From an uncultured Planctomycetota bacterium (GTDB lineage Bacteria > Planctomycetota > Uabimicrobiia > Uabimicrobiales > JABWCH01), in the NCBI GenBank assembly GCA_964585305.1, contig CAZPDM010000013.1:1-64000 (forward strand): a stretch of DNA of 64,000 bases, read 5' to 3'. The position numbers were made by a program, and so were the translations under genes. Every line of letters starts with the position of its first letter. Positions within the stretch are counted from its first letter, which is position 1. Below are positions 3,900 through 62,563 of this stretch, piece after piece. The notes under the pieces are model-generated. The model had not been told where the DNA came from. It made no database searches and saw only the letters and a program-made list of their open reading frames with translations.

Positions 3900-4721
3900 T
3901 TAATTTGATACAAATTCTTCTAAAGCTGCACGAAATTTTTGAGGTTCATCTGCATGACACCAATGTCCTGAACGCGGAAGTATAACATGCTGAACCTGAT
4001 TGTCTCTTTTTTGCCGAATCATTTCCTCAGCATGTTCCAAAATAAGATGATCGCTATTTCCTCCACGTACTAGTGTAATAGGGGCTTCTATTTGTCGCCA
4101 TTCCTCATAAAATGATAAATACTTAAGCTCCTCAACCAACTCTTGCAATCCTTCTAAATCTACACGCCAATGTAATCCTTGCTCATTTTCTTTCGCAGAT
4201 AAATTCGTTAAAAGGAAATCACATAATCGCTGATCAGTTGTAAATTGTTGCAACTGTTTGCGTGCCTCCTCAAAAGAGGCAACCGGAGTAGGAATAGCCT
4301 GTAGCCAAGATATAGCATTCGGAATATTAGGCGGAATTGGATCTAAACCAATATCTACAATCATTACTTTTTTGATAAGTTCTGGAGCTTGTGCTGCCAA
4401 ACGCATAACAACTTTTCCCCCTAATGAATGACCAATAAGGTACACAGGAGGTTTTCCAATATCTAAAATAAATTGGATCACATCAGCCACCATAGTTTGA
4501 AAAGGGCTAAGGCGATCAAATTTTGGGCTTCTGCCATGTCCTCTTAAATCAAGAGCGCAAGAACTCATTCCTTTATCATGCAACATCATTTTGAGAAATG
4601 TTTGCCAAAGTCTTCCACTTCCCAGTAATCCATGGATAAAAAACACTTGGCAAGGCAAACTTCCACATTGATAGTAATATAAAGAATGTTGAGAGTGTCC
4701 TTCAATTATATTAGGAAGCAT
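3900..4721 (-). CDS. Alpha/beta-fold hydrolase
   Basis: HGLLGSG oxyanion-region motif and GHSLGG nucleophile elbow (GxSxG). About 270 aa. Confidence 0.75.
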   Translation of the reverse strand: MLPNIIEGHSQHSLYYYQCGSLPCQVFFIHGLLGSGRLWQTFLKMMLHDKGMSSCALDLRGHGRSPKFDRLSPFQTMVADVIQFILDIGKPPVYLIGHSLGGKVVMRLAAQAPELIKKVMIVDIGLDPIPPNIPNAISWLQAIPTPVASFEEARKQLQQFTTDQRLCDFLLTNLSAKENEQGLHWRVDLEGLQELVEELKYLSFYEEWRQIEAPITLVRGGNSDHLILEHAEEMIRQKRDNQVQHVILPRSGHWCHADEPQKFRAALEEFVSN

Positions 4722-4967
4722 AAAAATCCTTTAAAATTATTGATGAAAATTTCTAATAAATAATCAGTCAACTAAGTCTTTGGACGTTTAATTGAGAGGA
4801 ATTGAACCCGCTGCTGCAATATATCGCCATTATTTTACGTTAAAGAATTGCTTTTTTCCAAGAAAAAATATTTTTCATTGGAGTTTTTAAAATTTTTTTT
4901 TATACTATAGCTCCAGTTGATATAGTTGTTTAAGCAGAAAATAGCAGAAATTTAGGACAAAAAGAAT

Positions 4968-20912: not shown

Positions 20913-21095
20913 TCAGCCCCGGCGTTTATTCACACTACAAGAACTGCCAGAACCTGAAGCGGTAGAAAAACTGCCAACTAATTTTTTGCATTGAGCAGAG
21001 CCGCATTTGGGGCATTTTACTGCATCGCCTTCTTTGGCAACCATCTGTTCAAATTTGTGATGGCAAGTCTCGCATTCAAATTTGTAAAGTGGCAT
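20913..21095 (-). CDS. FmdB-family zinc-ribbon protein
   Basis: MPLYKFECETCHHKFE...CPKCGS: a CxxC...CxxC zinc ribbon with the FmdB N-terminal consensus (MPxYEYxCxxC). Confidence 0.65.
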   Translation of the reverse strand: MPLYKFECETCHHKFEQMVAKEGDAVKCPKCGSAQCKKLVGSFSTASGSGSSCSVNKRRG

Positions 21096-21876: not shown

Positions 21877-23706
21877 ATGGATGAAAGAGAACGATCGAAA
21901 CCGGCCGCTCGTAAAGTCTTCCAGCAACAGTTGGTTTTAAATGCAGTTTCAGAAGCTACTGATGAAAAAGAAGCTCAGGCTTTTTCAAATAGAAAAGATA
22001 TACGATTGCCCGATCAGAAAACTTCAGAAGAATTGCAACAAGAAAAAGGCGGTTTAAAAATTCGCGAAACTGGCTGGTGGTTCTGGCGAACTATTGTCCT
22101 TCCTCCAAATGCTTATGTTGTACATACAAGACGTGGTTGCAAAGCACCCATCACACTAGGATTGGGTATAAGTTTTCGATATAATCCTAATACAGATAGT
22201 TATATTACAGTTCCAGCAGCTTTGCAAACAATTGGTATTATTGCACAAGGGATTAGCAAGGAAAAGCAGGGCATTAGTATCTTAGCTTATGTACAATGGA
22301 TGATTAGTGATTTTGCAATTGCTTATCGGCATTTGGATTTTTCAGATAATAAAGATCCTATGGGAATTGTCAACGCTCAATTACGAGAGCAAGCAGAAGC
22401 TGCTATCAAAGATAAAATTTCTACCATGAGCGTACAGGAAATTCTTACAGACAAAGCCCCTATTATTAAAGAACTTACTCAACGGATGAAAGCTGTTGCC
22501 GAAGGAAAAGGTGAAGGCGGCGTAGGCGGTGGTTTGGGACTTCATATTGTTACAGTACAAATTAAGGAAGCCTTTGTAAGTTCTCAAAAACTTTGGGAAT
22601 TTTTACAAGCACCATTCCGTAATGAACGTGAACGCGAAGCAAGATTAAGCCGCTTGCGTGTTGAAGAAGAAATTCGACAACAGGAATTGGCCAATCGTAA
22701 AAGTATTGAGAATGCGGAGTCTCAAACTCAATCAGATATTTCTAAAATTAAAGCGAGTAAAGAAAGAGAATCTTTCGAAATTGTTTTAAAAGAACGCATC
22801 CGTCGGCAAGAATTAGAGAACGAAGAAAAACAACGTGTACTTGCTTTAGAACAAGAATTGCAAATGAAGAAACGCGAGTCTCAAAGAAGTTTGCAAGAAT
22901 ACGAGTTGTTGACAGAGCAAGAATTAAATATCATCAAGGCCAAACAAGCCCAATCTTTAGCTTTGCAAAAGATAACATTAGATTCTGAACAAACTTTAAA
23001 AGCAAAAGAAATTGAAGTTGAAGCAAGCGTAAAACAACTCGAAGCTGAAACAAAACTTAGAACTTCAGAATCAGAAGAGCAACAAAAATTAGATATTTTA
23101 AGAGCCAAACAAGAACAAGAACTTGCTTTGGAAAAAGCCCGTTTGAATGCTGACCAGCTTTTAACAGCAAAAGAAATCGAAATTACTGCCAATATGAAAA
23201 AAATTGAGGCAGAAACAAAACTGAAAGCATACGAATTTTCTTTACAGCTTCAACAATTAGAAGGTCAAAAAACTTTTTTGCAAAAAGAAGACGAGGTTTC
23301 GAAGATTGGTTTGCAATATAAGGTACAAAAAGAGCTTGCTGAAGCTGATCATAAACTTGCTTTACAACAAAAGACTTTTCAACAAACAAAGGCACAAGAA
23401 GAAGAAAGCTACCGTATTGCAAATGCTCAAAAGCAAAAAGAATTAGAATTCTTGCAGGCAAAACAAGCAATAGAAAATTCTGTTTCTCCTGAAAATTTAT
23501 CCAGCCGAATGATTTCTGTTCTACCAGAATTGGCCAAACAAATGCCGAAGATACAAGAATTACGTACGCTTAACATTTCAACAGATGGACAACATAGTGA
23601 TGGATTTTCCTTATTAGGAACATACCTTGCAAAATTATTAGAGATTGGACGTACATTAGGTATAAAACTTCCCAAGACAGAAGTAGAACAATCATCGAAA
23701 TCTTAG
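21877..23706 (+). CDS. SPFH/Band-7 (flotillin-like) domain protein with a long C-terminal coiled-coil
   Basis: N-terminal hydrophobic segment and an SPFH-like region (WWFWRTIVLPPNAYVVHTRRG...). The C-terminal roughly 350 aa is highly charged heptad-like repeats (Q/E/K/L rich). Confidence 0.5.
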   Translation: MDERERSKPAARKVFQQQLVLNAVSEATDEKEAQAFSNRKDIRLPDQKTSEELQQEKGGLKIRETGWWFWRTIVLPPNAYVVHTRRGCKAPITLGLGISFRYNPNTDSYITVPAALQTIGIIAQGISKEKQGISILAYVQWMISDFAIAYRHLDFSDNKDPMGIVNAQLREQAEAAIKDKISTMSVQEILTDKAPIIKELTQRMKAVAEGKGEGGVGGGLGLHIVTVQIKEAFVSSQKLWEFLQAPFRNEREREARLSRLRVEEEIRQQELANRKSIENAESQTQSDISKIKASKERESFEIVLKERIRRQELENEEKQRVLALEQELQMKKRESQRSLQEYELLTEQELNIIKAKQAQSLALQKITLDSEQTLKAKEIEVEASVKQLEAETKLRTSESEEQQKLDILRAKQEQELALEKARLNADQLLTAKEIEITANMKKIEAETKLKAYEFSLQLQQLEGQKTFLQKEDEVSKIGLQYKVQKELAEADHKLALQQKTFQQTKAQEEESYRIANAQKQKELEFLQAKQAIENSVSPENLSSRMISVLPELAKQMPKIQELRTLNISTDGQHSDGFSLLGTYLAKLLEIGRTLGIKLPKTEVEQSSKS

Positions 23707-23760
23707 TAAGTGGTTTGTCAACTAAATTGCTAGACATATTTTCCTTATCCTAGTGCACTA

Positions 23761-23900
23761 GTCCATGCACTGACGTGCATGGTAGGAATTAACCCGCCGC
23801 TTATAAATGATGGCTTTAACGAAAGAAAATTTGCAGCGGGTTCAATTCCTCACAGTTGAATCTCAAACACATAGTTGGCATATTTTTTAGTCCAAAAACT
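23761..23900 (+). ncRNA. Copy A of a roughly 135-bp repeated structured element (candidate sRNA or cis-regulatory RNA), upstream of 23957..24400
   Basis: About 85% identical to 29159..29297 in the same orientation. Conserved long-range stem GGAATTAACCCGCCGC / GCGGGTTCAATTCC. Followed by a perfect 13-bp hairpin at 23902..23933. Confidence 0.4.
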
Positions 23901-23956
23901 AAAGATGTATGAATTGAAATTCATACATCTTTAAATTATAGAAAGATAAAAAATTT

Positions 23957-24400
23957 ATGAGGGAAAACATTCTTGTATTCGCTTATAATATGGAACGTGA
24001 TTCTGCAAAATTTTATGCAAAAATGTCTAATCAAGTTAAAGGTAGTTATGTTAAAATTATGTTCAATGAATTATCTGAAGAAGAATTTAAACATCAACAA
24101 ATTTTGGAAAAAATGATAAAAAGACAAGTCGTTCCTAAATTGCCAAATGTTGAAATTCCAGATATTCATCTTTCTGATATATTAGATAAACCTGAACTTA
24201 CTGATGATATGGTTCCTAAAGACATTATTGCGTATGTAATTAAAATGGAAGAAGAGGCAATTTCTTTATATCAGTCTTTATATAACGCGGCAACAAATTT
24301 AGAAGATAAGGAAACATATTCAGAGTTGATCAAGATGGAATCTGTACATAAATATCGTTTTCAACGAGTGCTTGAAGATATTTCCTTGTGGGAAAAGTAA
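23957..24400 (+). CDS. Ferritin-like diiron-carboxylate (rubrerythrin-family-like) protein
   Basis: Two E...ExxH-type pairs (ERDSAKFY / EEEFKH; EEEAISLY / ESVHKY) spaced as in rubrerythrin/ferritin-like four-helix bundles. Confidence 0.45.
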   Translation: MRENILVFAYNMERDSAKFYAKMSNQVKGSYVKIMFNELSEEEFKHQQILEKMIKRQVVPKLPNVEIPDIHLSDILDKPELTDDMVPKDIIAYVIKMEEEAISLYQSLYNAATNLEDKETYSELIKMESVHKYRFQRVLEDISLWEK

Positions 24401-24432: not shown

Positions 24433-25638
24433 TTACTTTTTAATGATAATATCTCTTCCAAAAATTGCAAAAAATATTGTTCCTATAATACCGCAAATTC
24501 CTGCAATTGCAAAATTTGTTTCCGGAGAAATTTCCCATAATGGAGCAGACGCAAGAGCCGCAAAAGAGACTATCACATCGCGAATAAGATAATATGTTCC
24601 AAATGTTACAGCTTTTGCATGTTCGGGTGCTAAATCCATAATAAGAGCTTTTCTAGTTGGCTCTCCAAATTCTTTGAGTCCTCTAATAATAAAGGCTAGA
24701 ATAAAAAGATAAAAATTGTTACAAAAAATTAACACCAATGGAAATAAAGTAAAAAAAATAAATGTGATCAAAACAAAACGTTTTTTTCCATATTTATCTG
24801 CCATATAAGCAATGGGAATATAAATTAAAACAGCTGTAATCATTTCAATTGTTGTTAAAATGCCAAATTTAGCTTCTGGAACATTATGATAGTTTACAAC
24901 CCAGAGTACAACAAAAGCATTTGGAATTTGCTCTGCGAACCGAATTAAAATATCAGATATGAGAAGATGCCTTAAATCAGGAGTAATATAGTTAAAAGAT
25001 TCGAGAATCCCAATTTCTTGCGTTTTTTCGTATTTATCTTCAATCCAAACAATTTGTATCCATATTGCAACTGCTGCAAAAATAAAGGCAATCCCAAATG
25101 CTAATCGAATACCAATTTGTTGACCATATTGGGCAATTAAAATACCTCCTAGCAATGGTCCTATTGCCATAGGAATACGTCGGATTAAAGAGTGCATGGT
25201 AACGCCCATAACACGTTTTTCTTTTGATGCAACTTTGTTTACTAAACTCATAATAGGAGGCAATGAAACTGCACTCCAAGCAATAAAAAGGATAGAAGCC
25301 GCCAATACAGCTTGCCAACTTGGAATCAGAATGACTATTGCATAACCAATCATCGCGATAATTGTAAAAAAAATAAGAGAACGTTTATATCCCCATGCTT
25401 GAGAGAGATATCCGCTAGGAAAAGAATATAACGCGCCAAGTAAATTTTGTAACGCATTAAAATAGCCAACAATATATACAGAGCCTCCTAGTGTTATTAA
25501 ATAAAGTGGCAAATATCGTTCGGCAATTCTTTCTCCCATGCCTACAAAAATTACCATGATTAGCATGGCAAACATGCTTGGATTGATACCAAAAAATTGA
25601 GAAATTTTTATATTATTATCTGAAAAATCTGTTTTCAT
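24433..25638 (-). CDS. MFS transporter
   Basis: About 12 TM helices, 401 aa, MFS-like loop motifs. Confidence 0.65.
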   Translation of the reverse strand: MKTDFSDNNIKISQFFGINPSMFAMLIMVIFVGMGERIAERYLPLYLITLGGSVYIVGYFNALQNLLGALYSFPSGYLSQAWGYKRSLIFFTIIAMIGYAIVILIPSWQAVLAASILFIAWSAVSLPPIMSLVNKVASKEKRVMGVTMHSLIRRIPMAIGPLLGGILIAQYGQQIGIRLAFGIAFIFAAVAIWIQIVWIEDKYEKTQEIGILESFNYITPDLRHLLISDILIRFAEQIPNAFVVLWVVNYHNVPEAKFGILTTIEMITAVLIYIPIAYMADKYGKKRFVLITFIFFTLFPLVLIFCNNFYLFILAFIIRGLKEFGEPTRKALIMDLAPEHAKAVTFGTYYLIRDVIVSFAALASAPLWEISPETNFAIAGICGIIGTIFFAIFGRDIIIKK

Positions 25639-28686: not shown

Positions 28687-29067
28687 TTAGCACAAAGCTA
28701 TTGCTTCCATTTCAACTGCAACATCTTTTGGTAGTCTGCTGACTTCTACACAAGCACGTGCAGGTTTAGATGTCCCAAAATATTCTTGATAAATGTCATT
28801 AAGTTCTTTGAAATTGTTCATATCTTTAAGATAGATATTTACTTTAACAACTTTTTCTAAATTTGAACCTCCTGCAAGAATAACCGCTTTCAAATTTTCT
28901 AATACCTGGCGACATTGTTTTGAAAAAGATTCTGTAACAAGAGCATTTGTTTGGGGATCGATAGGGATTTGCCCGGAGATAAAAAGAAGATTTCCTGTTT
29001 TAACTGCTTGAGAATAAGGGCCAACAGGATTTGGGGCTTTCTCCGTATATACTATTAGTTTATCCAT
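28687..29067 (-). CDS. ridA: RidA/YjgF-family reactive-intermediate deaminase
   Basis: [25 protein letters not shown]...[11 protein letters not shown]...[11 protein letters not shown] is a classic RidA signature. The ATG at 29067 has an AGGAAA RBS; the ORF-track start 29091 is less likely. Confidence 0.85.
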
Positions 29068-29158
29068 TGTTTTTTTCCTATAAAGTAACAAATATTAACT
29101 GAACTTAAGAATTTATTATACATTCCTATCTCAATACTAACTTTAGCTAAGTAAACTT

Positions 29159-29297
29159 GTCCATGCACGGATGGTAGGAATTAACCCGCCGCTTATAGAC
29201 GGTGATCTTTAACGAAAAAAAAATTTGCAGCGGCGGGTTCAATTCCTCATAGTTGGATATCAAACACGTAGTTGGCATATTTTTTAGTTCAAAAACT
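29159..29297 (+). ncRNA. Copy B of the roughly 135-bp repeated structured element, upstream of 29423..30829
   Basis: Aligns along its length with 23761..23900. The same stem is preserved, with a compensatory-compatible insertion in the 3' arm. Confidence 0.4.
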
Positions 29298-29422: not shown

Positions 29423-30829
29423 ATGCGCCAATTTTGGAATCGTATTTTAGCTCGAAAATCTCCAGTCTTTTGGAGTATGGTAACTTTTTTTGTTGGAATA
29501 ACTTTGTTTGTGATCATTCAATTAGGAAGGAATTATCTTCCCTGGTTGGCCCAAGAAATACTTCCTAGAATTCCTAACCTTAATAATAATATTGAAATTC
29601 GTTTGGAAGTTAAAAATCCTACCAATGTTTCTGTTCAATCTAAATTGGAAACTTTTAAAGTTGGGACATCTGTTTATCGTTTTCAGCCTAAATTAGAGGT
29701 TTTAGGTTTTGTAAAAGATATTCAAATTAAGTCCGATCATGTTTTATTTTTATTGAGCATTTCTGCAAAATATAAAGATGCTATATTATGTGATACTACG
29801 AAGTTTGAGCTTTTACAAAGCTCTCCTTCTATGATTATGATTTTTCAGCGTTTTTTTGAAGGGCCAAATGCTCAACAGTTTAAACAAGAAATGAAGCGAT
29901 TAGCAGAAAATAACCAAAGTAAGATCAGTATTATTTTTCTTAGATTAACACAAATTCTAGGAAGTAAAATAAAAAATGAGCAGCAAGCAAAAGCTATTTT
30001 GGAAGATCCGCAGCTAAAAGCCATGATTTACGAGCAATTTCGCGAACAAATTACTACAAAAATAGATTTACAAGAACTTTGGGATAAGCTGGAACAAAAT
30101 CCCCATGCAAAACACACTGTAGAAATTTTTCAAAAAAATATTGATTGGAAAAAAGTTAAATATCGAGCTATTGCTGGTGCTGGTTCACAAGCATTGGAAG
30201 ATGCTTCTACAGCATGGCTAGATCCTAAAATGGTTTTTGATGATCCAAATACAGCAGCAAAAGCATTGTTTTCTGTAATGAATTTTATTATTGATCCAAG
30301 TACAACAACTAAACGTGGAACAGATGCTTTGATTCCAGGGGCAACAAAAGCAGCTGTAAAAGCTACAGCAAAGGAGGCAGGAAAGATTGCTAAAGAAAAT
30401 TTCCCGGAAATTTTAGAAAGCGGAAGTGAAGCAGCAATCAATGTTTTAACAGAAACTCAAACACCACAAAAAATCTGGGAAGGATTATTGAATTTATCAA
30501 AAAATAAACAAATTCGAGAATATACTCAAAAACGTTATGGCTCTAAAGTAACAGAGGCTATCAGTCAAACTTTTATTGAAGCTTCCAATGATCCTCAGAT
30601 TGTTACAAATTTTAATACAATTGTATCTGATATACAAAATATAACAACAGGATGGTTAGAAAAATTTCTGTTGGACGAAACGCATAGCGGCCCAAATCCA
30701 TTACTTTTAGTAGCTATTCGAGAAGGTATTTCTCAAAAAATAGAATCGCAAATTGTTTGTTATCCTGGAGAAAATGGCCGTCGAGTATCATCGGAAAATA
30801 TTTTTGTTACAATCTTTCAAGATTTTTAG
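29423..30829 (+). CDS. Hypothetical membrane-anchored protein (N-terminal TM; possible MCE/MlaD-like periplasmic domain)
   Basis: The ATG at 29423 has an AAGGAGGA RBS. One N-terminal TM helix (VFWSMVTFFVGITLFVIIQ). The downstream segment loosely fits an MCE beta-barrel pattern (inference only). 13-bp gap to the next gene. Confidence 0.4.
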   Translation: MRQFWNRILARKSPVFWSMVTFFVGITLFVIIQLGRNYLPWLAQEILPRIPNLNNNIEIRLEVKNPTNVSVQSKLETFKVGTSVYRFQPKLEVLGFVKDIQIKSDHVLFLLSISAKYKDAILCDTTKFELLQSSPSMIMIFQRFFEGPNAQQFKQEMKRLAENNQSKISIIFLRLTQILGSKIKNEQQAKAILEDPQLKAMIYEQFREQITTKIDLQELWDKLEQNPHAKHTVEIFQKNIDWKKVKYRAIAGAGSQALEDASTAWLDPKMVFDDPNTAAKALFSVMNFIIDPSTTTKRGTDALIPGATKAAVKATAKEAGKIAKENFPEILESGSEAAINVLTETQTPQKIWEGLLNLSKNKQIREYTQKRYGSKVTEAISQTFIEASNDPQIVTNFNTIVSDIQNITTGWLEKFLLDETHSGPNPLLLVAIREGISQKIESQIVCYPGENGRRVSSENIFVTIFQDF

Positions 30830-30841
30830 GAAGCAGCAATT

Positions 30842-32704
30842 ATGACAAATTCGCAAAACAATATAGAGAATAAAAACTCTCCAATATTGGATATTCAGGG
30901 AATTAGTATACAAACAGTAAAACCAACTGTGTTTGGTATTACAAAGAAAAAATCTAAAGAAAAAGATAAAATCGCAGCAAGTACAAATATAAAGGATATT
31001 GTAAAATCAGAGGTCAGTATTGAGCCTTTATTATGCAATTTAGAATTGAGTGCGTATCCCGGAGAGATTGTCCTTTTATTAGGTGCAAGTGGTACAGGAA
31101 AGTCTCTTCTTGCTAATCTTATTTTAGGATTTGTCTCCAGCGTTGATAAAGGAATTGTTATTAAATCTGATCATAGTAAAGCCCATTTTTCTGTAAAACT
31201 AGAGCAAAGTCCTACAGAATATAATCTTTTAAATCCTATATATCCTACAGATTTAGAAGGAAAAATTGGAGTCATGTTTCAATCTCTAGGACTTTTTGAT
31301 GATCTTACAGTAGGCGAAAATTGGGAGATTGCAAACGATCAATCACAACTCCCTCTTGCTGGGACAGAATGGAACGATTGGAAACGTGAAACTTTAAAGT
31401 CTTTGGGGTTAGACGATAGTGTTTTACAATCTAATATTCATAAACTTTCCGGGGGACAGAAGCAGCGTGTTGCATTTGGTCGTCTTTTGGCTTTTCAACC
31501 AGATATTATGATATTAGACGAGCCTACCAGTGCATTAGATATTTCTACTGCACAACAAGTTGTTGGAATGATCCAAAAAACTCATAAAAAGAAAATTTTG
31601 GAAAATAAAAAATGCCTGACTTTAATCATTACTCATGATTATGAAAATTTTATTCAAATTGCCGATCGAGTTTGGTACATATCTCCAGGAGGAATCATTC
31701 AAAAGGAAGATGGAACGACAGAAAAACGCACTGGTGGGCATGTTGAAAATCATTTTCCTCCCAAAAGTAAAACTTATTATGAAAAAGATCTTTGTACTAA
31801 ACGATATCCTGATGAACCATCAGATTATTCTCAAGAAGAATGGCTACGACATGAAGCACGTTGCCAAGATATAGCCTACAATACATTATTTCTGAGGTTT
31901 TTTCAAAGTTTAATCCGCGCCATGCGTCCTAAAAACTATCGTTGGTGGCGTAAATTTTTTGGTATTATGTGGAAATTGTTAGTAATGCGTGCGTTACTTT
32001 ATATCTTGGTGACAGGTTTTTTCTTAGGATTAGTTTGTACATATTTTTCTCTTAATCTGAATCTGGGTTCTGTCCAATTAGCAAGTGGAACAAAAGTAAA
32101 GGTCGAGCAATTTATTTTGCCAACTTTTTTCCGCGAAATGTTAAGCGGATTTGGGATTGTTATGTTTCGCGCACTTATTCCTTTGTTTACTTGTATTTTT
32201 ATTGCCGCTCGATCTGGAACTGCAATTACTTCTTATTTATCTTCTATGAGAGATAACGAACGAAGACAATGGGATTCTTTGCAAAACTTAGGTATTGAAC
32301 CGCATCTTTTTTTCTTTCCTCAAATTGTAATATGCTTTGTATTAGGATGTTGGATATTATCGTATCTTTCTTTTTTATGTGCTGCATTAGGCTCTCTTTT
32401 AGTGGCTCTAGCTACAAATCCTCTTTGTACCTGGTATACATGGATGGACACATTTTGGAAATATCTTTATCCCCAACCACTATTTGATGTAATAAGCTTT
32501 ATTCCTATTTTTGCAGGCTTTGGTATGTTTACTTTAAAAACAATGGTTGTTGGCTTTGCTATTGCCTGCATCTCTTTCTCCTGGGGAGTAAAATTAAGAA
32601 AAAATACATTGGAAACTATCCACCATCTTATGGGAGCTAATATTTGCAATATGGTTGCAATTTTGTTGGTTTTCTTTATCTTGTTAATTATAGAATTAGG
32701 ATAG
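30842..32704 (+). CDS. ABC transporter ATP-binding domain fused to an MlaE-like permease domain
   Basis: Walker A GASGTGKS, signature LSGGQKQRVAFGRLLA, Walker B IMILDEPTSALD, H-loop ITHD. The C-terminal roughly 250 aa has about 5 TM helices and MlaE/YrbE-like segments (FIAARSGTAITSYLSSMR; LQNLGIEPHLFFFPQIV). Confidence 0.65.
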   Translation: MTNSQNNIENKNSPILDIQGISIQTVKPTVFGITKKKSKEKDKIAASTNIKDIVKSEVSIEPLLCNLELSAYPGEIVLLLGASGTGKSLLANLILGFVSSVDKGIVIKSDHSKAHFSVKLEQSPTEYNLLNPIYPTDLEGKIGVMFQSLGLFDDLTVGENWEIANDQSQLPLAGTEWNDWKRETLKSLGLDDSVLQSNIHKLSGGQKQRVAFGRLLAFQPDIMILDEPTSALDISTAQQVVGMIQKTHKKKILENKKCLTLIITHDYENFIQIADRVWYISPGGIIQKEDGTTEKRTGGHVENHFPPKSKTYYEKDLCTKRYPDEPSDYSQEEWLRHEARCQDIAYNTLFLRFFQSLIRAMRPKNYRWWRKFFGIMWKLLVMRALLYILVTGFFLGLVCTYFSLNLNLGSVQLASGTKVKVEQFILPTFFREMLSGFGIVMFRALIPLFTCIFIAARSGTAITSYLSSMRDNERRQWDSLQNLGIEPHLFFFPQIVICFVLGCWILSYLSFLCAALGSLLVALATNPLCTWYTWMDTFWKYLYPQPLFDVISFIPIFAGFGMFTLKTMVVGFAIACISFSWGVKLRKNTLETIHHLMGANICNMVAILLVFFILLIIELG

Positions 32705-32713
32705 GTTAAAACC

Positions 32714-35293
32714 ATGCGACAAATTTTTTATCAAATATTACTTCTGGTTTTATTTTTCTTATTTTTCTTTATAGCTATTATCTTTGGAATTTCTGAAAAA
32801 ATGGTACTTTCTTTTATATCTTGTATTTGTTTTCTTTTTACAATATATCTACTAAAGATTGTTGCCCAAGCCAAAAAGAAATGTCAGCAAAATATTTTGG
32901 AAATTGCTGTTTTAGGCCCATCAGGAGCCGGGAAAACAACATTTTCTGCAACCTTAATCCAACAATTAGTAAGTGGTTTTCCAGAAGGCCAATCTGCTGG
33001 ACTATGCAAAGGAGTTGGATATTTAGATGATAACATTGAACGTGATTTACGAAAACTAGCAATATCTAAAAAAGATAGTGAAGGTTTTCTTCCCCTCCAG
33101 CGATTAACTTACGAAATGGCATCCACAGAATTAAAAAATTATTCTCAAGGAAAGCTAAATCCTACCCACGAACCAGAATGTCTATATTTGAAATTGTTGC
33201 ATGGCAATACTTGGTATCGTCTGGAATGGTATGATATACCCGGAAGTTATTTTGAAGAAGAAAATAAAGATTTTAGCTATATTAAAGATATATTACGACG
33301 TTGTCATGGCGTAATATTTTTAATAGATTCTACAAAATTACTAGATAATTCGTTTTCAAAAACAGAACTATCTATTTTTCTAAAAAATTATTTTACAGCA
33401 TTTGCTTTACGAATGTTTTCTGGAACAGTTGTTGGAAAATTTCCGCTTTGGATAGCCTTTACTAAAGGCGATTCTGTTTTGCAATCTCCCAATTATGAAG
33501 ATGAATTGACTCGCCAAACTTCCCAGATTATTATTCCTGCTAAACAACATGATGAACGATTAGAATTATTAGTAAGTACAATTTCAGCAAATGTTCAGGC
33601 GGAGCGTTTATATTTTAATATTCCATATTTTATGGGAAAGTTTTGCGAAAGTCTTTGGAATCAAATTACTGTCCGGCAAAAAGGATTTGCTATTTTAAAA
33701 AGATGGTTAATTTTTTGGTGTTTAATGTTGCTGTACTGTTCTTTAGAGACTACAGCATATTGGCATTTTTCAGAATTAACAAGGGTACAAGAAGCTGATA
33801 ACTTAACCATATCCTCTGCAATTGAGATATTAAACAGTCTATGTGAAAATCATAAAGGGGTAGGATTGCCTTCTTTTTATGTCTATCGAAAATCAGAACT
33901 ATTAGCTAAAGCAGAAATGGTACAATTTATGCTTTCTCGTTTACTTACAGAAAAAATGGAAACTATAGTTATTTCACAATCTCAATATCATGCTGATTTG
34001 CGGTTAATCCTAGATGCTATCTTTGCTTTAGAAAAAAGCATCAAAATTTTAAAAATGTCTCCAAAAGATTTTCAATATCAAAAACATTTTGCTGAATATT
34101 TAACCTCCTGGGATAAACATATACAAAATGGTTCTTCCTTAGTGAAAAAACTTGAGTTTAGTCAAAAAATTCCACAAACTCAATTTCAGTTAAAACAAGC
34201 TATTTTATCGGAAACTAAGATCGAATTGCAAAAAGAACTGGATCAATCTCAAAGCCTTGCTGATACTTATATTGGCGAACAGTATTACAACGATCGTCTT
34301 TTACCTTTAATCCAATGGTATAAAAATTATGGTGGAGTATTTACTGATTTAGATAATCTATGCAATAAATATCAAAATGAACATTGGGATTATTGTTGGC
34401 AAAGATTTTCTAAAGAACTCATGGAAAACTCAACCATTACTTTAGAACAGCAGGCGGAAAAGTTATATACATTTTTTCTTGCACAGCCTAAAGAAGATAG
34501 AAAAACACAACATCTTGGCCAATGTCCAGCTGCTATTTATTTAAGCTGGCAAAAAAAAGTTATACCTGTTTTACAAAAACTCGATATTACTCTAGCAAAA
34601 CATTTTTTATTATATGAACGCCTTCAAGAACAATTAGAACCTTCTATTAAGTCAGAAATAACTGGATTCCAATTTGATAAAACCATGAGGAATCTATCGC
34701 GAAAACTCTTGGATACTACATTTGATAACAAAAATGTAACTTTAGAAGAAATGGAAAAATCCCTTCAAAAATTTCAAACTGAATTTGCCCAATATCGCCC
34801 GGAAATGGCCAAAATTTGGCAAGAACGTTGTGCGTATTTTCGTAACCCACCAAGTTATGAAATTGACATTACTTTTCAAGAATATGGAACAAATGCAAAA
34901 AATAAAACAAAACGCTGGGATACTGGAATCTTAGATAAATGGTATCTTTATACAAAATTTTCTTCAGAAGAAAAACAAACGGTGTTATTTCTTGACTTAA
35001 GTCAAGGCGGTAATTTCCAAGGAAGTATCGAGCGAAAAATTTATTGGAAACCTTGGACAAAGATAACTATATCCTGGCTGGAAGCTGATGATGATGTAGA
35101 TGTTATTTTACGTGATGATATTATCTTATATAGTAAAGAATTCCGAAATTGCCTATCTTTACTTGATGCTCGTACTATCCATCAAATTCTTGAAAACCAA
35201 AATCAGGAAGAATATTGGATCAAATTTGATGTTAAAAAAATTGACGAAATTATTCCGGCTTGGTTGCTTGAAATATATTTACATCAAAATTAA
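32714..35293 (+). CDS. Membrane-anchored P-loop GTPase-like protein with a large uncharacterised C-terminal region (859 aa)
   Basis: Two N-terminal TM helices, then G1 GPSGAGKT, G3 WYDIPG (DxxG), G4 FTKGD ([NT]KxD). A further TM segment near aa 330. About 500 aa with no recognisable motif. Confidence 0.45.
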   Translation: MRQIFYQILLLVLFFLFFFIAIIFGISEKMVLSFISCICFLFTIYLLKIVAQAKKKCQQNILEIAVLGPSGAGKTTFSATLIQQLVSGFPEGQSAGLCKGVGYLDDNIERDLRKLAISKKDSEGFLPLQRLTYEMASTELKNYSQGKLNPTHEPECLYLKLLHGNTWYRLEWYDIPGSYFEEENKDFSYIKDILRRCHGVIFLIDSTKLLDNSFSKTELSIFLKNYFTAFALRMFSGTVVGKFPLWIAFTKGDSVLQSPNYEDELTRQTSQIIIPAKQHDERLELLVSTISANVQAERLYFNIPYFMGKFCESLWNQITVRQKGFAILKRWLIFWCLMLLYCSLETTAYWHFSELTRVQEADNLTISSAIEILNSLCENHKGVGLPSFYVYRKSELLAKAEMVQFMLSRLLTEKMETIVISQSQYHADLRLILDAIFALEKSIKILKMSPKDFQYQKHFAEYLTSWDKHIQNGSSLVKKLEFSQKIPQTQFQLKQAILSETKIELQKELDQSQSLADTYIGEQYYNDRLLPLIQWYKNYGGVFTDLDNLCNKYQNEHWDYCWQRFSKELMENSTITLEQQAEKLYTFFLAQPKEDRKTQHLGQCPAAIYLSWQKKVIPVLQKLDITLAKHFLLYERLQEQLEPSIKSEITGFQFDKTMRNLSRKLLDTTFDNKNVTLEEMEKSLQKFQTEFAQYRPEMAKIWQERCAYFRNPPSYEIDITFQEYGTNAKNKTKRWDTGILDKWYLYTKFSSEEKQTVLFLDLSQGGNFQGSIERKIYWKPWTKITISWLEADDDVDVILRDDIILYSKEFRNCLSLLDARTIHQILENQNQEEYWIKFDVKKIDEIIPAWLLEIYLHQN

Positions 35294-44818: not shown

Positions 44819-45424
44819 TTGAAAAATACCCTTGTAATTTTATTAATATTTTTGTTTTCGAATACAATTTTTGCCGCAAGCATTTCTTTGCAAGTAATTT
44901 CCGCTGGATATGATACCAGTGGCTATCCTGGTGGAGTTGCACGACTTTATGTAGATGGCGTAGATTACTCCAAAAACGGTCGTGGTATCAATATCGTAGT
45001 CATTGATAAAACTTATGGAAATGTTGTAAGCAGCGTAGTTTTTGACACATATTTAAGCACAACTGCCTCAGCAAATATGGTAACATTTATCAATAATATT
45101 GCTGCTGGAAATATTGTAATTGCAGCAGTAAAAGATGAAGCGACAGACAATATCACTTCTACTGCTATAAACGCTTTGAAAACCCTTGGTGCAAGTAGTT
45201 TTGCTCCAGGGTACCGCGGTTCTTGGGCTTTTATTGGCGAAAAGGGATTAGCAGCAGGGGCAGGATTACAAGATACCGATCCTCGTTATGGTGCAGCTAG
45301 TACCTTATCAAAAACAGTTGAACTTATGATTCCTGAACCTGGTACATATTTTTTATGTTTAATTAGTTTAGTTTTTGTAACATATCATAGAAAAAAAAGA
45401 AATTTATTTGTCATAAAGGAGTAA
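44819..45424 (+). CDS. ILEI/FAM3-like domain protein with C-terminal PEP-CTERM sorting signal, paralog 1
   Basis: GRGINIVVIDKTYGNVVSSVVFDTY...LGASSF.PGYRGSWAFIGEKG matches the ILEI/FAM3 domain pattern. C-terminus IPEPGTYFLCLISLVFVTYHRKKRN is PEP + TM + basic tail. TTG start with an AAGGAG RBS. Confidence 0.6.
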   Translation: MKNTLVILLIFLFSNTIFAASISLQVISAGYDTSGYPGGVARLYVDGVDYSKNGRGINIVVIDKTYGNVVSSVVFDTYLSTTASANMVTFINNIAAGNIVIAAVKDEATDNITSTAINALKTLGASSFAPGYRGSWAFIGEKGLAAGAGLQDTDPRYGAASTLSKTVELMIPEPGTYFLCLISLVFVTYHRKKRNLFVIKE

Positions 45425-45427
45425 CCA

Positions 45428-46024
45428 TTGAAAAATATTATGATATTTTTATTTCTTTTATGCTTCTTTATAACTCCATCCTTTGCTATTAGTATTTCTG
45501 TTGAAGTTCTTTCAGCCGGTTGGGAAGATCCTGGTTTTTATCCAGGTGGTGGAGTTAGAATTTCTGTCAATGGTGTTGACTATGCTGCACACGGTAGAGG
45601 TGTAAATATTGTAGTCATCGACCAATTTTCTGGCAATGTATTAAATAGTGTTGTCTTTGATACCTGCGGAAACACTTCAGCTTCGGCTAGTATGGCTAAT
45701 TATATTAGCAATATTGCGACAGGAAGAATTGTTCTTGCTGCTGTACAAGATGAAGCCTATCAATATATGTATAGCGATGGTGTAAATGCTTTGAAAACAC
45801 TTGGAGCTAGCAGTTTTAACCAAGGCTATCGCGGTTCTTGGGCTCTTATTGGAGCTAAAGGTTTGGCCACAGGAACGGGGTTGCAAGTTAGTGCAGTACG
45901 TGGCACTGGGCCAAGTACCTTATCTAAAATTATAGAATTAAATACTCCTGAACCTGGTACATATTTTTTATGTTTAATTAGTTTAATTTTTGTAACATAT
46001 CATAGAAAAAAAAGAAATAAATAG
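45428..46024 (+). CDS. ILEI/FAM3-like domain protein with C-terminal PEP-CTERM sorting signal, paralog 2
   Basis: About 55% identical to paralog 1 over the ILEI-like domain. The last 72 nt (PEP-CTERM) are identical but for one base. TTG start with the same RBS context. Confidence 0.6.
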   Translation: MKNIMIFLFLLCFFITPSFAISISVEVLSAGWEDPGFYPGGGVRISVNGVDYAAHGRGVNIVVIDQFSGNVLNSVVFDTCGNTSASASMANYISNIATGRIVLAAVQDEAYQYMYSDGVNALKTLGASSFNQGYRGSWALIGAKGLATGTGLQVSAVRGTGPSTLSKIIELNTPEPGTYFLCLISLIFVTYHRKKRNK

Positions 46025-52657: not shown

Positions 52658-52733
52658 TCCCCGGTAGCTCAACAGGCAGAGCGCGTGGCTGTTAACCACT
52701 AGGTTATAGGTTCAAGTCCTTTCCGGGGAGCCA
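52658..52733 (+). tRNA. tRNA-Asn (anticodon GTT), CCA encoded
   Basis: Manual cloverleaf: 7-bp acceptor stem TCCCCGG/CCGGGGA, D-arm GCTC..GAGC, anticodon loop CTGTTAA, T-loop TTCAAGT, discriminator G, CCA. Confidence 0.85.
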
Positions 52734-52740
52734 TCTATTT

Positions 52741-52813
52741 TCCCCGGTAGCTCAACAGGCAGAGCGCGTGGCTGTTAACCACTAGGTTATAGGTTCAAGT
52801 CCTTTCCGGGGAG
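52741..52813 (+). tRNA. tRNA-Asn (anticodon GTT), second identical copy, 3' CCA not encoded (CTA follows the discriminator)
   Basis: Body sequence identical to the first copy, 7 nt downstream of it. Confidence 0.85.
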
Positions 52814-52827
52814 CTAGAAAAAAATAT

Positions 52828-59806: not shown

Positions 59807-59827
59807 AAATTATTGAATTTTTTAGAA

Positions 59828-61243
59828 ATGGAACCAGAAATAATGGTGTGTAAATTAAAAAAAGAACCAAATACTCAAAATAAATCGAAAAGTCATCTAA
59901 GTACAGCTAACGCTAATGCTATTTTACAAAGTATTTCTGATGGTGTGTTTACTGTTGATACCAATTGGAAAGTAACTTCTTTCAATCGAGCTGCTGAAGA
60001 AATTACAGGAATTTCACCAAGCGAAGCTATAGGAAAATATTGTTTTGAAGTCTTTCGATCTAGTATGTGTGAAACAGAATGTGCATTGCGTAAGACATTA
60101 GAAACAGGAAATCCTATTGTTAATAAATCATGTTTTATTATTGACGCTCAAGGAAACCATATTCCAATTAGTGTATCTACAGCTGTACTTAAAGATGATG
60201 AAGGAAATATAATTGGAGGAGCAGAGACATTTCGTGATCTAAGCGATGTAGAAGACTTACGTAAAAAGGTAGAAGGTATTTTTAAAATTGGAGATATTAT
60301 TAGTCGTAGTCATACTATGAAAAAGGTATCTGTTATTTTACCTTCGATTGCAGCTAGTGATAGTACTGTTCTTATTCAAGGGGAAACTGGAACTGGAAAA
60401 GAACTTTTGGCTCGCGCAATTCATTATTCAGGAAGACGTAAGGAAAAACCTTTTATTGCCATAAATTGTGGAGCATTACCAGATACTCTTTTAGAATCCG
60501 AGCTATTTGGTTATAAAGCAGGAGCATTTACTGGAGCAAACAAAGATAAGCCTGGACGTTTTGCCTTAGCAGAAGGCGGAACATTATTTCTGGATGAAAT
60601 TGGAGAAATCAGCCAAATGCTTCAAGTAAAGTTGCTTCGAGTTCTGCAAGAAAAAAATTATGATCCACTTGGTGCAACTCAATCTGCAAAAGCTGATGTA
60701 AGGATTGTTGCCGCGACTCATAAAGATATTTATTCTTTAGTTAAACAAGGCCTTTTTAGAGAAGACTTGTTTTATCGTATTCACGTAATTAGAATTGATC
60801 TTCCTCCACTAAGAGAAAGAAAAGAAGATATTCCTTTATTACTTGATCATTTTATTGCAAAATTTAATAAAATCCAACGTAAAAATATTGCAGGGATAAC
60901 TCAAGAATCTCTTGCTTTGCTTATGTCTTACAATTGGCCTGGTAATATTAGAGAATTAGAAAATTTTATTGAACGGGCATTTATTCTTTGTTCTGAGGGA
61001 ATGATTGAACCAAAACATTTGTCAGAAAATTTTAGTTACTCGGAGACTAAAGTTCTAGTCTCACCATTTCATATTTCCGCTATTAAGCAAACGATTGAAG
61101 CAGAGGCAATTTTAGAAGCTTTAAAAAGAAATAATTTCAATCGTTTGGCGGCTGCAAAAGAATTGGGAATTCATAAAAGTACGTTTTTTCGTAAAATTAA
61201 ATCATTAGGAATATCTCTTCCTTCTAAACAAGAAGAAAACTAA
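59828..61243 (+). CDS. Sigma-54-dependent transcriptional activator (PAS sensor + AAA+ sigma-54 interaction + Fis-type HTH; no receiver domain)
   Basis: PAS-like N-terminus. Walker A GETGTGKE, GAFTGA motif (GYKAGAFTGA), Walker B LFLDEIGE. C-terminal HTH (NRLAAAKELGIHKSTFFRKIK). The start is uncertain (TTG at 59813 or ATG at 59828). Confidence 0.85.
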   Translation: MEPEIMVCKLKKEPNTQNKSKSHLSTANANAILQSISDGVFTVDTNWKVTSFNRAAEEITGISPSEAIGKYCFEVFRSSMCETECALRKTLETGNPIVNKSCFIIDAQGNHIPISVSTAVLKDDEGNIIGGAETFRDLSDVEDLRKKVEGIFKIGDIISRSHTMKKVSVILPSIAASDSTVLIQGETGTGKELLARAIHYSGRRKEKPFIAINCGALPDTLLESELFGYKAGAFTGANKDKPGRFALAEGGTLFLDEIGEISQMLQVKLLRVLQEKNYDPLGATQSAKADVRIVAATHKDIYSLVKQGLFREDLFYRIHVIRIDLPPLRERKEDIPLLLDHFIAKFNKIQRKNIAGITQESLALLMSYNWPGNIRELENFIERAFILCSEGMIEPKHLSENFSYSETKVLVSPFHISAIKQTIEAEAILEALKRNNFNRLAAAKELGIHKSTFFRKIKSLGISLPSKQEEN

Positions 61244-61362: not shown

Positions 61363-61378
61363 TGGCATACATTTTGCT
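61363..61378 (+). promoter_or_regulatory. Sigma-54 (-24/-12) promoter: TGGCAT-ACATT-TTGCT
   Basis: The GG and GC dinucleotides are separated by exactly 10 nt, matching the TGGCAC-N5-TTGCW consensus. It lies about 105 nt upstream of the first NifX-like gene and directly downstream of a sigma-54 activator. Confidence 0.6.
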
Positions 61379-61484: not shown

Positions 61485-61859
61485 GTGAAAGTCGCCATTA
61501 CAATTTGGAATGAGCATATTTCTCCTGTTTTTGATGTATGTAAAAAAATGCTTATTTTAGATATTCAGGATAAGAAGATTATTTCGCAAAGAGAAGAAAA
61601 TTTTATTGATGACGATCCTTTAAAAAAAATATCTCAATTAAGTTATTTTTCTATTCATACATTGATTTGTGGGGCAATATCAAAAAACTTAGCCGATGAA
61701 CTTTCTTCTTTAAATATCAAAATTATCCCTTTTATCTCTGGAAAAATAGAAAATGTTATTTTCGCTTATATTTCCGACCAATTATTAGAAAGTTCTTTTC
61801 TTATGCCAGGATGCAGGAAGAGATGCCAAAGGCGAAAAAGAAATTGTTGTAAAAAATAA
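61485..61859 (+). CDS. NifX/NifB-like (dinitrogenase FeMo-cofactor family fold) small protein with Cys/Arg-rich C-terminal tail
   Basis: MKVAITIWNEHISPVFDVCKKMLILDI...LICGAISKNLADELSSLNIKIIP fits the NifX-like single-domain pattern. C-terminal PGCRKRCQRRKRNCCKK. Confidence 0.5.
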   Translation: MKVAITIWNEHISPVFDVCKKMLILDIQDKKIISQREENFIDDDPLKKISQLSYFSIHTLICGAISKNLADELSSLNIKIIPFISGKIENVIFAYISDQLLESSFLMPGCRKRCQRRKRNCCKK

Positions 61860-61883
61860 AAAAAATTTTTGAAAGGAAATGTT

Positions 61884-62174
61884 ATGCCAGGAAAAAATGG
61901 AATGGGTCCTAATGGATTAGGGCCAATGACAGGACGTGCTGCTGGATATTGTGCAAGAAATCATAATTTGGGGCAATTCGGATTTCAAGGGAGAAGGCGA
62001 AATTGTTTTTGTCAAAATAATATTCCAGGCTGGAGATGGGCAAATCAAAATATTCCACCAAATGTTGAATACGAAAAAAATTATTTAACAATACAAGCTC
62101 AGGAAATAGAAAAACAGTTATCTCAAATTAAAAATCGTCTATCTGAAATAGAATCTGCTGAAAAGCAAAAATAA
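61884..62174 (+). CDS. DUF5320-like small protein (Gly/Pro-rich N-terminus, C-terminal coiled-coil)
   Basis: MPGKNGMGPNGLGPMTGRAAGYCAR resembles the DUF5320 N-terminal signature (MPrgDGTGPmGmGPmTGRgaGyC). The ATG at 61884 has an AAAGGA RBS. Confidence 0.5.
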   Translation: MPGKNGMGPNGLGPMTGRAAGYCARNHNLGQFGFQGRRRNCFCQNNIPGWRWANQNIPPNVEYEKNYLTIQAQEIEKQLSQIKNRLSEIESAEKQK

Positions 62175-62204
62175 TAAAGACTACAAAGACAAAGGAGTCT
62201 AAGC

Positions 62205-62561
62205 GTGAAAATTGCGTTTACTACATCTGGAATAACTTTGAAAGATTCTTTAGATCCTCGTTTTGGACGTGCTCCTAAATTTTTGATTTATGATTTGGAA
62301 AATAATGTTTTTGATATAATAGATAATCAAAAAAATTTAAATGCAGCACAGGGAGCTGGTATACAATCTGCGGAAACAATAGTCAAGGCAGGTGTTAATG
62401 CTCTGGTTACTGGACATTGCGGACCAAAAGCATTTCGTGTTCTTTCTACAGCAGGAATTACTATTTATAACACAGATGCTACTACCATTGATCTTGCTCT
62501 AGATCAATTCCGATCTGGCAAACTTAATCAAGTTACATCTGCTAATGCTGAAGGACACTAG
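62205..62561 (+). CDS. NifX/NifB-like (dinitrogenase FeMo-cofactor family) domain protein
   Basis: MKIAFTTSGITLKDSLDPRFGRAPKFLIYDLEN...NALVTGHCGPKAFRVLSTAGITIYN is a canonical NifX/NafY-like pattern. GTG start with an AAAGGAG RBS. Confidence 0.75.
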   Translation: MKIAFTTSGITLKDSLDPRFGRAPKFLIYDLENNVFDIIDNQKNLNAAQGAGIQSAETIVKAGVNALVTGHCGPKAFRVLSTAGITIYNTDATTIDLALDQFRSGKLNQVTSANAEGH

Positions 62562-62563
62562 GA

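Follow-up and report, generated by a model that had tools for sequence, protein, structure and literature searches.

Three copies of a hairpin-forming intergenic sequence, possibly a lineage-specific dispersed repeat, in a 64-kb stretch of a poorly sampled bacterial genome

The DNA analyzed here (the window) is a single stretch of 64 kb, in which an element of about 145 nt occurs between genes. Copy A (positions 23758..23905, plus strand; 148 nt at full length, nhmmer E 1.8e-51) lies between two plus-strand genes, an SPFH/Band7 gene (21877-23706) and a rubrerythrin-like gene (23957-24400). Copy B (29156..29297, plus strand; 142 nt at full length, nhmmer E 6e-51) is in the divergent region between a RidA gene (28687-29091, minus strand) and an orphan/ABC-MlaE/GTPase operon with its first ATG at 29423. 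The extents of both were set by alignment. They are direct repeats, some 5.39-5.40 kb apart from start to start, and their alignment has 124 matches, 15 mismatches, and 16 gap columns, giving 89% identity over aligned bases, or 84.6% by blastn with gaps counted; the earlier note on this DNA had described two copies about 85% identical, in the same orientation and 5.4 kb apart, and all three of these statements hold. The 16-mer and 18-mer blocks common to A and B are far above shuffle expectation. The right edge of the homology is sharp, ending after ...AAAAACT, and the left edge fades over ~25 nt. The element has 39-40% GC (39% in copy A) vs. 27% for the intergenic background; raised GC is often seen in hairpin repeats.

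Copy A ends 52 nt before the start codon of the rubrerythrin-like gene (ATG 23957), and copy B 126 nt before ATG 29423, which stands behind an AAGGAGG site and is the true start of the gene downstream, rather than TTG 29360. The distance first given was 60-130 nt upstream of a start codon. The operon following copy B (29423-35293; L057, L059, and L060) encodes an orphan protein of ~465-545 aa, an ABC-ATPase/MlaE-permease fusion, and a large protein of ~690-960 aa with only sub-threshold similarity to DO-GTPase2; the first and third are without a confident family assignment, and the gene order is kept in distant metagenome-assembled genomes at 50-61% identity. Directly after copy A there is a separate perfect 16-bp hairpin (23899-23934; TAAAGATGTATGAATT / AATTCATACATCTTTA), 22 nt before the rubrerythrin-like start, with a terminator T-run on the minus strand only, partly supplied by the end of the element. 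The minus-strand operon extending from RidA to an MFS gene ends at 24433, and because the 32-nt convergent gap there lacks a terminator, its transcript might read antisense through the rubrerythrin-like gene and stop at this hairpin.

The initial count of two copies missed a third, partial one on the minus strand (copy C, ~4750..4850), which is found by nhmmer with an A/B profile (E 2.4e-10) and can be followed in the sequence and alignment. It lies in another divergent region (4722-4967), with a GH31 glycosidase gene to one side and, to the other, an alpha/beta-hydrolase gene (3900-4721, minus strand) paired with an isochorismatase gene; the hydrolase gene begins ~30 nt downstream of the copy. 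C corresponds to the 3' 95 nt of the family only. A profile built from A, B, and C yields nothing else in the 64-kb window, and the copy count of three is a count for the window. A weak fourth match at 20963-20992 was rejected as chance, being inside a real gene: an FmdB-type zinc-ribbon gene (Zn_ribbon_8; 60 aa; 20913-21095, minus strand) within an apparent gap of 403 nt, which accounts both for the locally raised GC and for the weak match to the repeat profile.

Four parts can be distinguished in each of A and B: a short hairpin, a long stem of 17 positions, the loop of 32-37 nt that this closes, and a tail of ~55 nt. The short hairpin (hairpin 1) is intact in A (23763..23782, plus strand), where the fold and pair table give 8 bp in CCATGCAC-tgac-GTGCATGG; its counterpart in B (29161-29174) has a 6-nt deletion and one substitution, leaving ~4 bp. 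The description first given was incomplete in this respect, including, of the two hairpins, only the long stem. That stem, proposed as a long-range pairing of 14-16 bp around a loop of roughly 35 nt, is real: AGGAATTAACCCGCCGC pairs with GCGGCGGGTTcAATTCCT over 17 positions with one bulged C (the arm sequence is also given as AGGAATTRAACCCGCCGC), and 17 of 17 positions are paired in B and 16 of 17 in A, the exception being a C/A mismatch. The 5' arm is at 23784..23800 in A (AGGAATTAACCCGCCGC) and, from the fold and pair table, at 29176..29192 in B; the 3' arm, which includes a conserved core block, is at 23833..23851 in A (GCAGCGGGTTCAATTCCTC) and at 29230..29248 in B (GCGGCGGGTTCAATTCCTC), all on the plus strand. 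The 3' arm of A lacks 3 nt that the corresponding stretches of B and C have. Because the latter two are equally long there, the difference is a deletion in A, rather than the still-pairing insertion in B first described; opposite this deletion the 5' arm of A is unchanged, and the C/A mismatch now stands there. The conserved tail reported earlier is also genuine (AGTTGGCATATTTTTTAGT). In A (23852..23905, plus strand) it includes the heptamers CAGTTGA and TAGTTGG, in direct orientation and 19 nt apart, and TTGGCATATTTTTTAGTCCAAAAACT; in both A and B it ends TAGTTGGCATATTTTTTAGT(C/T)CAAAAACT.

Copy C has neither hairpin 1 nor the 5' arm, so that no long stem is possible in it. Its sequence extends from TCTTTAACG, in A and B a part of the "loop," through TTGCAGCAGCGGGTTCAATTCCTC and TAGTTG to a T-rich end. 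Its conservation is patchy: the core block (4796..4814, minus strand; GCAGCGGGTTCAATTCCTC) is identical to that of A at 19 of 19 positions, TCTTTAACG at nine of nine, and TAGTTG at six of six, with the remainder ~50-70% identical. On this comparison the conserved core of the family is the block GC(A/G)GCGGGTTCAATTCCTC, identical in A and C, and not the long stem, since C is without the 5' arm. These patches of perfect identity hint at constraint on specific motifs.

If the copies have a common function, it could be at the RNA or DNA level. The element is not a small gene: by our own frame-by-frame reading of the A, B, and C sequences, a frame of 27 codons open in A is interrupted in B by an indel of 1 nt, and C has its ATG in another frame. 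At the RNA level, the element might be a cis-acting structured RNA (a 5' leader) or a small RNA gene family, read in the plus sense, in which the long stem would alternate with a second structure and in this way switch the gene downstream on or off; we consider this unlikely. The second structure comes from RNAalifold analysis of the three cores, which finds a local 8-bp hairpin, GUUCAAUU with AGUUGAAU, in all of A, B, and C and mutually exclusive with the long stem. Three of the four substitutions within it keep the pairing by way of G-U/A-U, on the plus sense only; this is suggestive as a hint of RNA function, below significance. The placement of the copies is also consistent with an RNA, since all three face the start of the next gene at distances of 30-126 nt, as are the GC-rich stems within AT-rich intergenic DNA, a promoter-like TTGTCA-16-TATTTT ending 16 nt before copy A, and the strong but uneven conservation of the blocks in C.

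The folds themselves count against an RNA. Of the 25 pairs that make up the two main helices, none differs at both of its positions from A to B, for a covariation score of 0 (with three sequences, such tests have low power), and structurally these copies differ only through uncompensated indels: hairpin 1 of B has lost 6 nt, and the 3' arm of A has lost 3. The RNAalifold consensus has a free energy of only -7.3 kcal/mol over 116 columns, and the one double change in the consensus fold of A, B, and C is within a helix of A and U only. Fold z-scores are -2.9 and -1.8 for the plus strand and -4.2 and -3.0 for the minus strand; the two strands are thus similar in foldability, the behavior of a DNA palindrome rather than of a strand-specific RNA. 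Copy C, besides being without the long stem, folds no better than its shuffles (z +0.1 to -1.2).

Comparison with known RNAs also argues against an RNA function. In an Rfam scan of the whole window at gathering thresholds, only two tRNA-Asn genes pass, neither at a copy, and local searches (E<=10 around A and B, E<=1 around C) return only sub-threshold palindrome artefacts, for example mir-2518 at 26.6 bits vs. a threshold of 61. The earlier judgment that no Rfam family fits is thus upheld by the very scan proposed to check it. There is no promoter ahead of B matching the one ahead of A, nor any shared by the copies, and no intrinsic terminator follows any of the three. With riboswitches and other 5' leaders the element has in common its upstream position and a stable stem with possible alternative pairing; it differs from them in having no Rfam match, no covariation, no terminator, and no helix that would sequester a ribosome-binding site, in the lack of a functional link among the downstream genes, and in the loss of the stem from C.

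The genomic setting bears on both RNA- and DNA-level functions. A, B, and C occupy three unrelated intergenic contexts, in both orientations, within 64 kb, and the genes downstream (rubrerythrin-like; orphan plus ABC/MlaE plus GTPase; alpha/beta hydrolase plus isochorismatase) have no evident common function, which counts against an RNA and in favor of a dispersed repeat. The observation that the element is upstream of a co-oriented gene is true as a matter of placement, but is automatic for B and C; because a divergent region faces a gene either way, their co-orientation carries no weight. Of the three divergent intergenic regions that the window has, two contain a copy, with a chance probability, by our own estimate from intergenic lengths, of p ~0.03. 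A preference for promoter regions would also fit a regulatory role.

One such role is that of a promoter or operator module shared at the DNA level, with the core and heptamers bound by a single regulator and the three genes constituting its regulon. The putative binding sites would be the 19-nt core and two YARTTRR heptamers, 19-20 nt apart, and a -35-like hexamer (TTGGCA/TTGACT) near the 3' end faces the downstream gene. Two of the three copies are within divergent promoter regions, and what survives in copy C, diverged as it is, includes the core, heptamers, and TTGRC hexamer; nonetheless, this reading is distinctly unlikely. By our own reading of the sequences, no copy has an acceptable -10 hexamer 16-18 nt after the -35-like hexamer, the degree of identity between A and B (89% over 145 nt) far exceeds the usual sharing among operators of a regulon, and the genes have no common theme. 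It is compatible with a repeat origin, inasmuch as Correia and similar MITE-like repeats carry outward promoters and IHF sites (PMC10969869).

Promoter candidates within the element were rejected individually. For sigma-70, there is no -10 hexamer at the right spacing; a promoter scan found no plus-sense site inside A or B, and in C only a weak 9/12 site overlapping the 5' part (4861-4832), with nothing at the TTGACT hexamer. A sigma-54 reading, prompted by a slight likeness of the tail to such a promoter, also fails: the tails of A and B read TGGCAT-ATTTT-TTAGT, without the -12 GC, and that of C reads TGACTG-ATTAT-TTATT, without the -24 GG; no copy is within 2 mismatches of the consensus used (TGGCAC-N5-TTGCW). 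A site elsewhere in the window does come within this limit: a near-canonical sigma-54 promoter (TGGCATACATTTTGCT) at 61363-61378, intergenic, between genes for a PAS/AAA+/HTH_8 sigma-54 activator (59813-61243) and a dinitrogenase FeMo-cofactor-binding-like protein (61485-61859). The latter is followed by the longest intergenic stretch in the window (61860-62563, 704 nt), with a GC content of 0.35 vs. a background of 0.27 and no Rfam match at gathering thresholds.

It is highly improbable that the copies are att-type relics of site-specific integration at the 3' end of a tRNA or tmRNA gene, with A and B bracketing a 5.4-kb insert. This idea arises from a resemblance of GGGTTCAATTCC to a tRNA T-arm, and from the slightly lower GC content of the block flanked by these direct repeats (0.30 vs. 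~0.34). The CCTCA that follows the T-loop-like run does not pair back, however, so there is no T-stem; neither ARAGORN nor Rfam finds a tRNA or tmRNA at the copies; there is no integrase inside the block or nearby; repeats of 145 nt at only 89% identity are unlike att duplications; and C stands alone, with no partner copy. The only tRNA genes ARAGORN finds in the window are twin tRNA-Asn(GTT) genes, in tandem at 52658-52814, with identical Rfam-matched cores of 73 nt and 83 nt from start to start.

No transposase or integrase was found anywhere in the window by Pfam scans, in which 45 ORFs were covered, five of them by NCBIfam only. Integron attC sites, template or variable repeats of diversity-generating type (DGR), retrons, and IS200/IS605 ends are each unlikely, with no integrase, reverse transcriptase, or transposase nearby; adenines are not singled out by the differences between A and B, and conservation reaches beyond the paired region. 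The window does have repeated sequences of other kinds. Positions 1-403 comprise a tandem array of a 27-nt unit in at least 10 copies, 94-99% identical and decaying toward 403, which overlaps the 5' region of an M2/M3-type peptidase ORF and implies a 9-residue protein repeat. Two PMT_2-type glycosyltransferase genes in tandem (10189-12006 and 12111-13919) are 92% identical over 300 nt and have similar upstream regions, and there is a tandem pair of ILEI-domain genes (44819-45424 and 45428-46024).

Searches beyond the window indicate how isolated this sequence is. An 18-mer from the element has three chance matches only in 185,579 species genomes, from which it follows that the source genome is not among these. 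In JGI metagenomes a 25-mer has 0 matches and the 19-mer core 38, all in unrelated sequence; exact words (the 16-mer, core, and tail) have chance matches only in viral contigs; and blastn against plasmid and phage collections gives no match at all. The chance matches have unrelated flanks and are mostly within high-GC coding DNA. Neither the genome nor the metagenome scans turned up further DNA of the source organism. Proteins of the window are in single-member clusters; for the rubrerythrin-like protein there is one homologue, at 50% identity, and for the 468-aa leader protein of the operon there is none. The source, a singleton, belongs to a poorly sampled, low-GC lineage, possibly related to Planctomycetota or similar groups to judge from the names carried by distant homologues.

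A few loci can nevertheless be compared. Orthologues of the ABC/MlaE fusion are present in three distant metagenome-assembled genomes (61, 53, and 50% identity), with the operon conserved, but the element is absent at the orthologous operon in all three, in one of which there are only 47 nt of intergenic DNA upstream; it is also absent at the locus of the rubrerythrin homologue. At the evolutionary distance of these relatives, its absence argues against an ancient operon leader, and so against the RNA reading in that form, and says little about a young one.

Taken together, the best reading is a lineage-specific, hairpin-forming dispersed repeat akin to REPIN, ERIC, or MITE sequences, with C as a decayed half copy, to which we would assign a probability of about one half. 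We lean toward a repeat because the third copy fronts an unrelated gene and lacks the long stem; because there is zero covariation, with only uncompensated indels in the stems; and because the element is missing at the orthologous operon in the nearest relatives. The earlier note had offered a small RNA or riboswitch-like leader on the one hand and a miniature repeat on the other; it is the second that is favored here. Counting against a repeat are the small number of copies in the window, the lack of terminal inverted repeats, of target-site duplications, and of any transposase or integrase gene in the window, the blurred left boundary of A and B, and the patchy conservation of C.

As a dispersed repeat, the unit of ~145 nt would comprise a short subterminal hairpin, a longer one with a GC core and two inverted arms of 17 nt, and a tail of 55 nt, and C would be a decayed or truncated half unit in which one arm and the tail were kept. 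Its spread into intergenic DNA with promoters could have been the work of a transposase, encoded in another part of the genome and recognizing the hairpin arms, or of local duplication; IS200/IS605-type and RAYT enzymes recognize the hairpin arms of REP/REPIN sequences in this way. The copies would now be drifting through point changes and small indels, and a hairpin within a 5' untranslated region may incidentally affect expression of the neighboring gene. We infer both the mobility and the enzyme responsible for it. There is no sign of a dedicated sensor or RNA gene.

The closest analogy is to REP doublets (REPINs) with decaying singlets, with ERICs and Correia-type MITEs as looser ones. REPINs are present in tens to hundreds of copies, and the RAYT gene, which codes for a Y1 tyrosine transposase, is usually flanked by REPs. 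The structural arrangement characteristic of a REPIN is found in A and B, with inverted arms of 17 nt and a spacer of 32-37 nt, and C has a single arm, the 3' one. Like REPINs, the element is non-coding and intergenic, with two GC-cored inverted arms of ~17 nt that form a long hairpin around a less conserved spacer; a single-arm copy (C) occurs beside doublets (A and B), much as REP singlets have been read as decaying remnants of REP doublets (PMC3337134); and REPINs, too, lack both terminal inverted repeats and target duplications (PMC3337134). Unlike them, it is conserved beyond the arms, in a 25-nt 5' part with its own hairpin and in the tail of 55 nt; no hairpin forms within the spacer of A and B; and there is no RAYT gene in the window. 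REPINs were defined in proteobacteria, to which the source lineage is unrelated.

ERICs are intergenic imperfect palindromes of 127 bp in enterobacteria, in which internal indels and partial copies occur (PMC2759123). The element resembles them in its size (~130-150 nt), imperfect palindromy, position in intergenic DNA beside genes, internal indels, and occurrence as partial copies. The two are not similar in sequence, however, and ERICs fold over their whole length, whereas pairing in the element is confined to the central 70-80 nt. Correia/NEMIS, RUP, and BOX elements are likewise small non-autonomous repeats upstream of genes, forming hairpins in transcripts and sometimes carrying promoter parts (PMC10969869).

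The features that define MITEs, which have many copies in a genome and a related autonomous IS, are terminal inverted repeats and target-site duplications, and neither is present at the three copies. The ends, ACT(A/T)GTCCATG... and ...TTTTTTAGT(C/T)CAAAAACT, are not inverted copies of one another; the inverted arms lie inside the element, set back by 26 nt on the left and 55 nt on the right. No target-site duplication is visible at any of the three copies; the flanks are ..TAGTGC | AAAGATG.. for A and ..AAGTAA | TTTGTCT.. for B. With no terminal inverted repeats, target duplications, or nearby transposase, the element is not filed in any named family. Nothing observed departs from known kinds of elements.

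Regulatory readings are kept alive by the patchy conservation of C and the preference for promoter regions. Their common ground is the 95-nt module shared by A, B, and C, in which the invariant block, GCRGCGGGTTCAATTCCTC, contains the T-loop-like run. It is doubtful, to much the same degree as a shared operator, that this module is a functional, lineage-specific regulator of a few unrelated genes, either as a toggling RNA or as a platform for binding of a regulator; in the RNA form, the 3' arm would pair alternately within the long stem and within the local GUUCAAUU/AGUUGAAU hairpin. Were there few copies in the genome, all before genes, the uneven conservation of the core would point to a new regulatory RNA or operator, which present data do not favor. 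If the element is a dispersed repeat, it would be routine, one more species-specific family of intergenic hairpin repeats, and would provide a marker for binning or typing of this lineage, and a caution to annotators against calling such a sequence an RNA gene.
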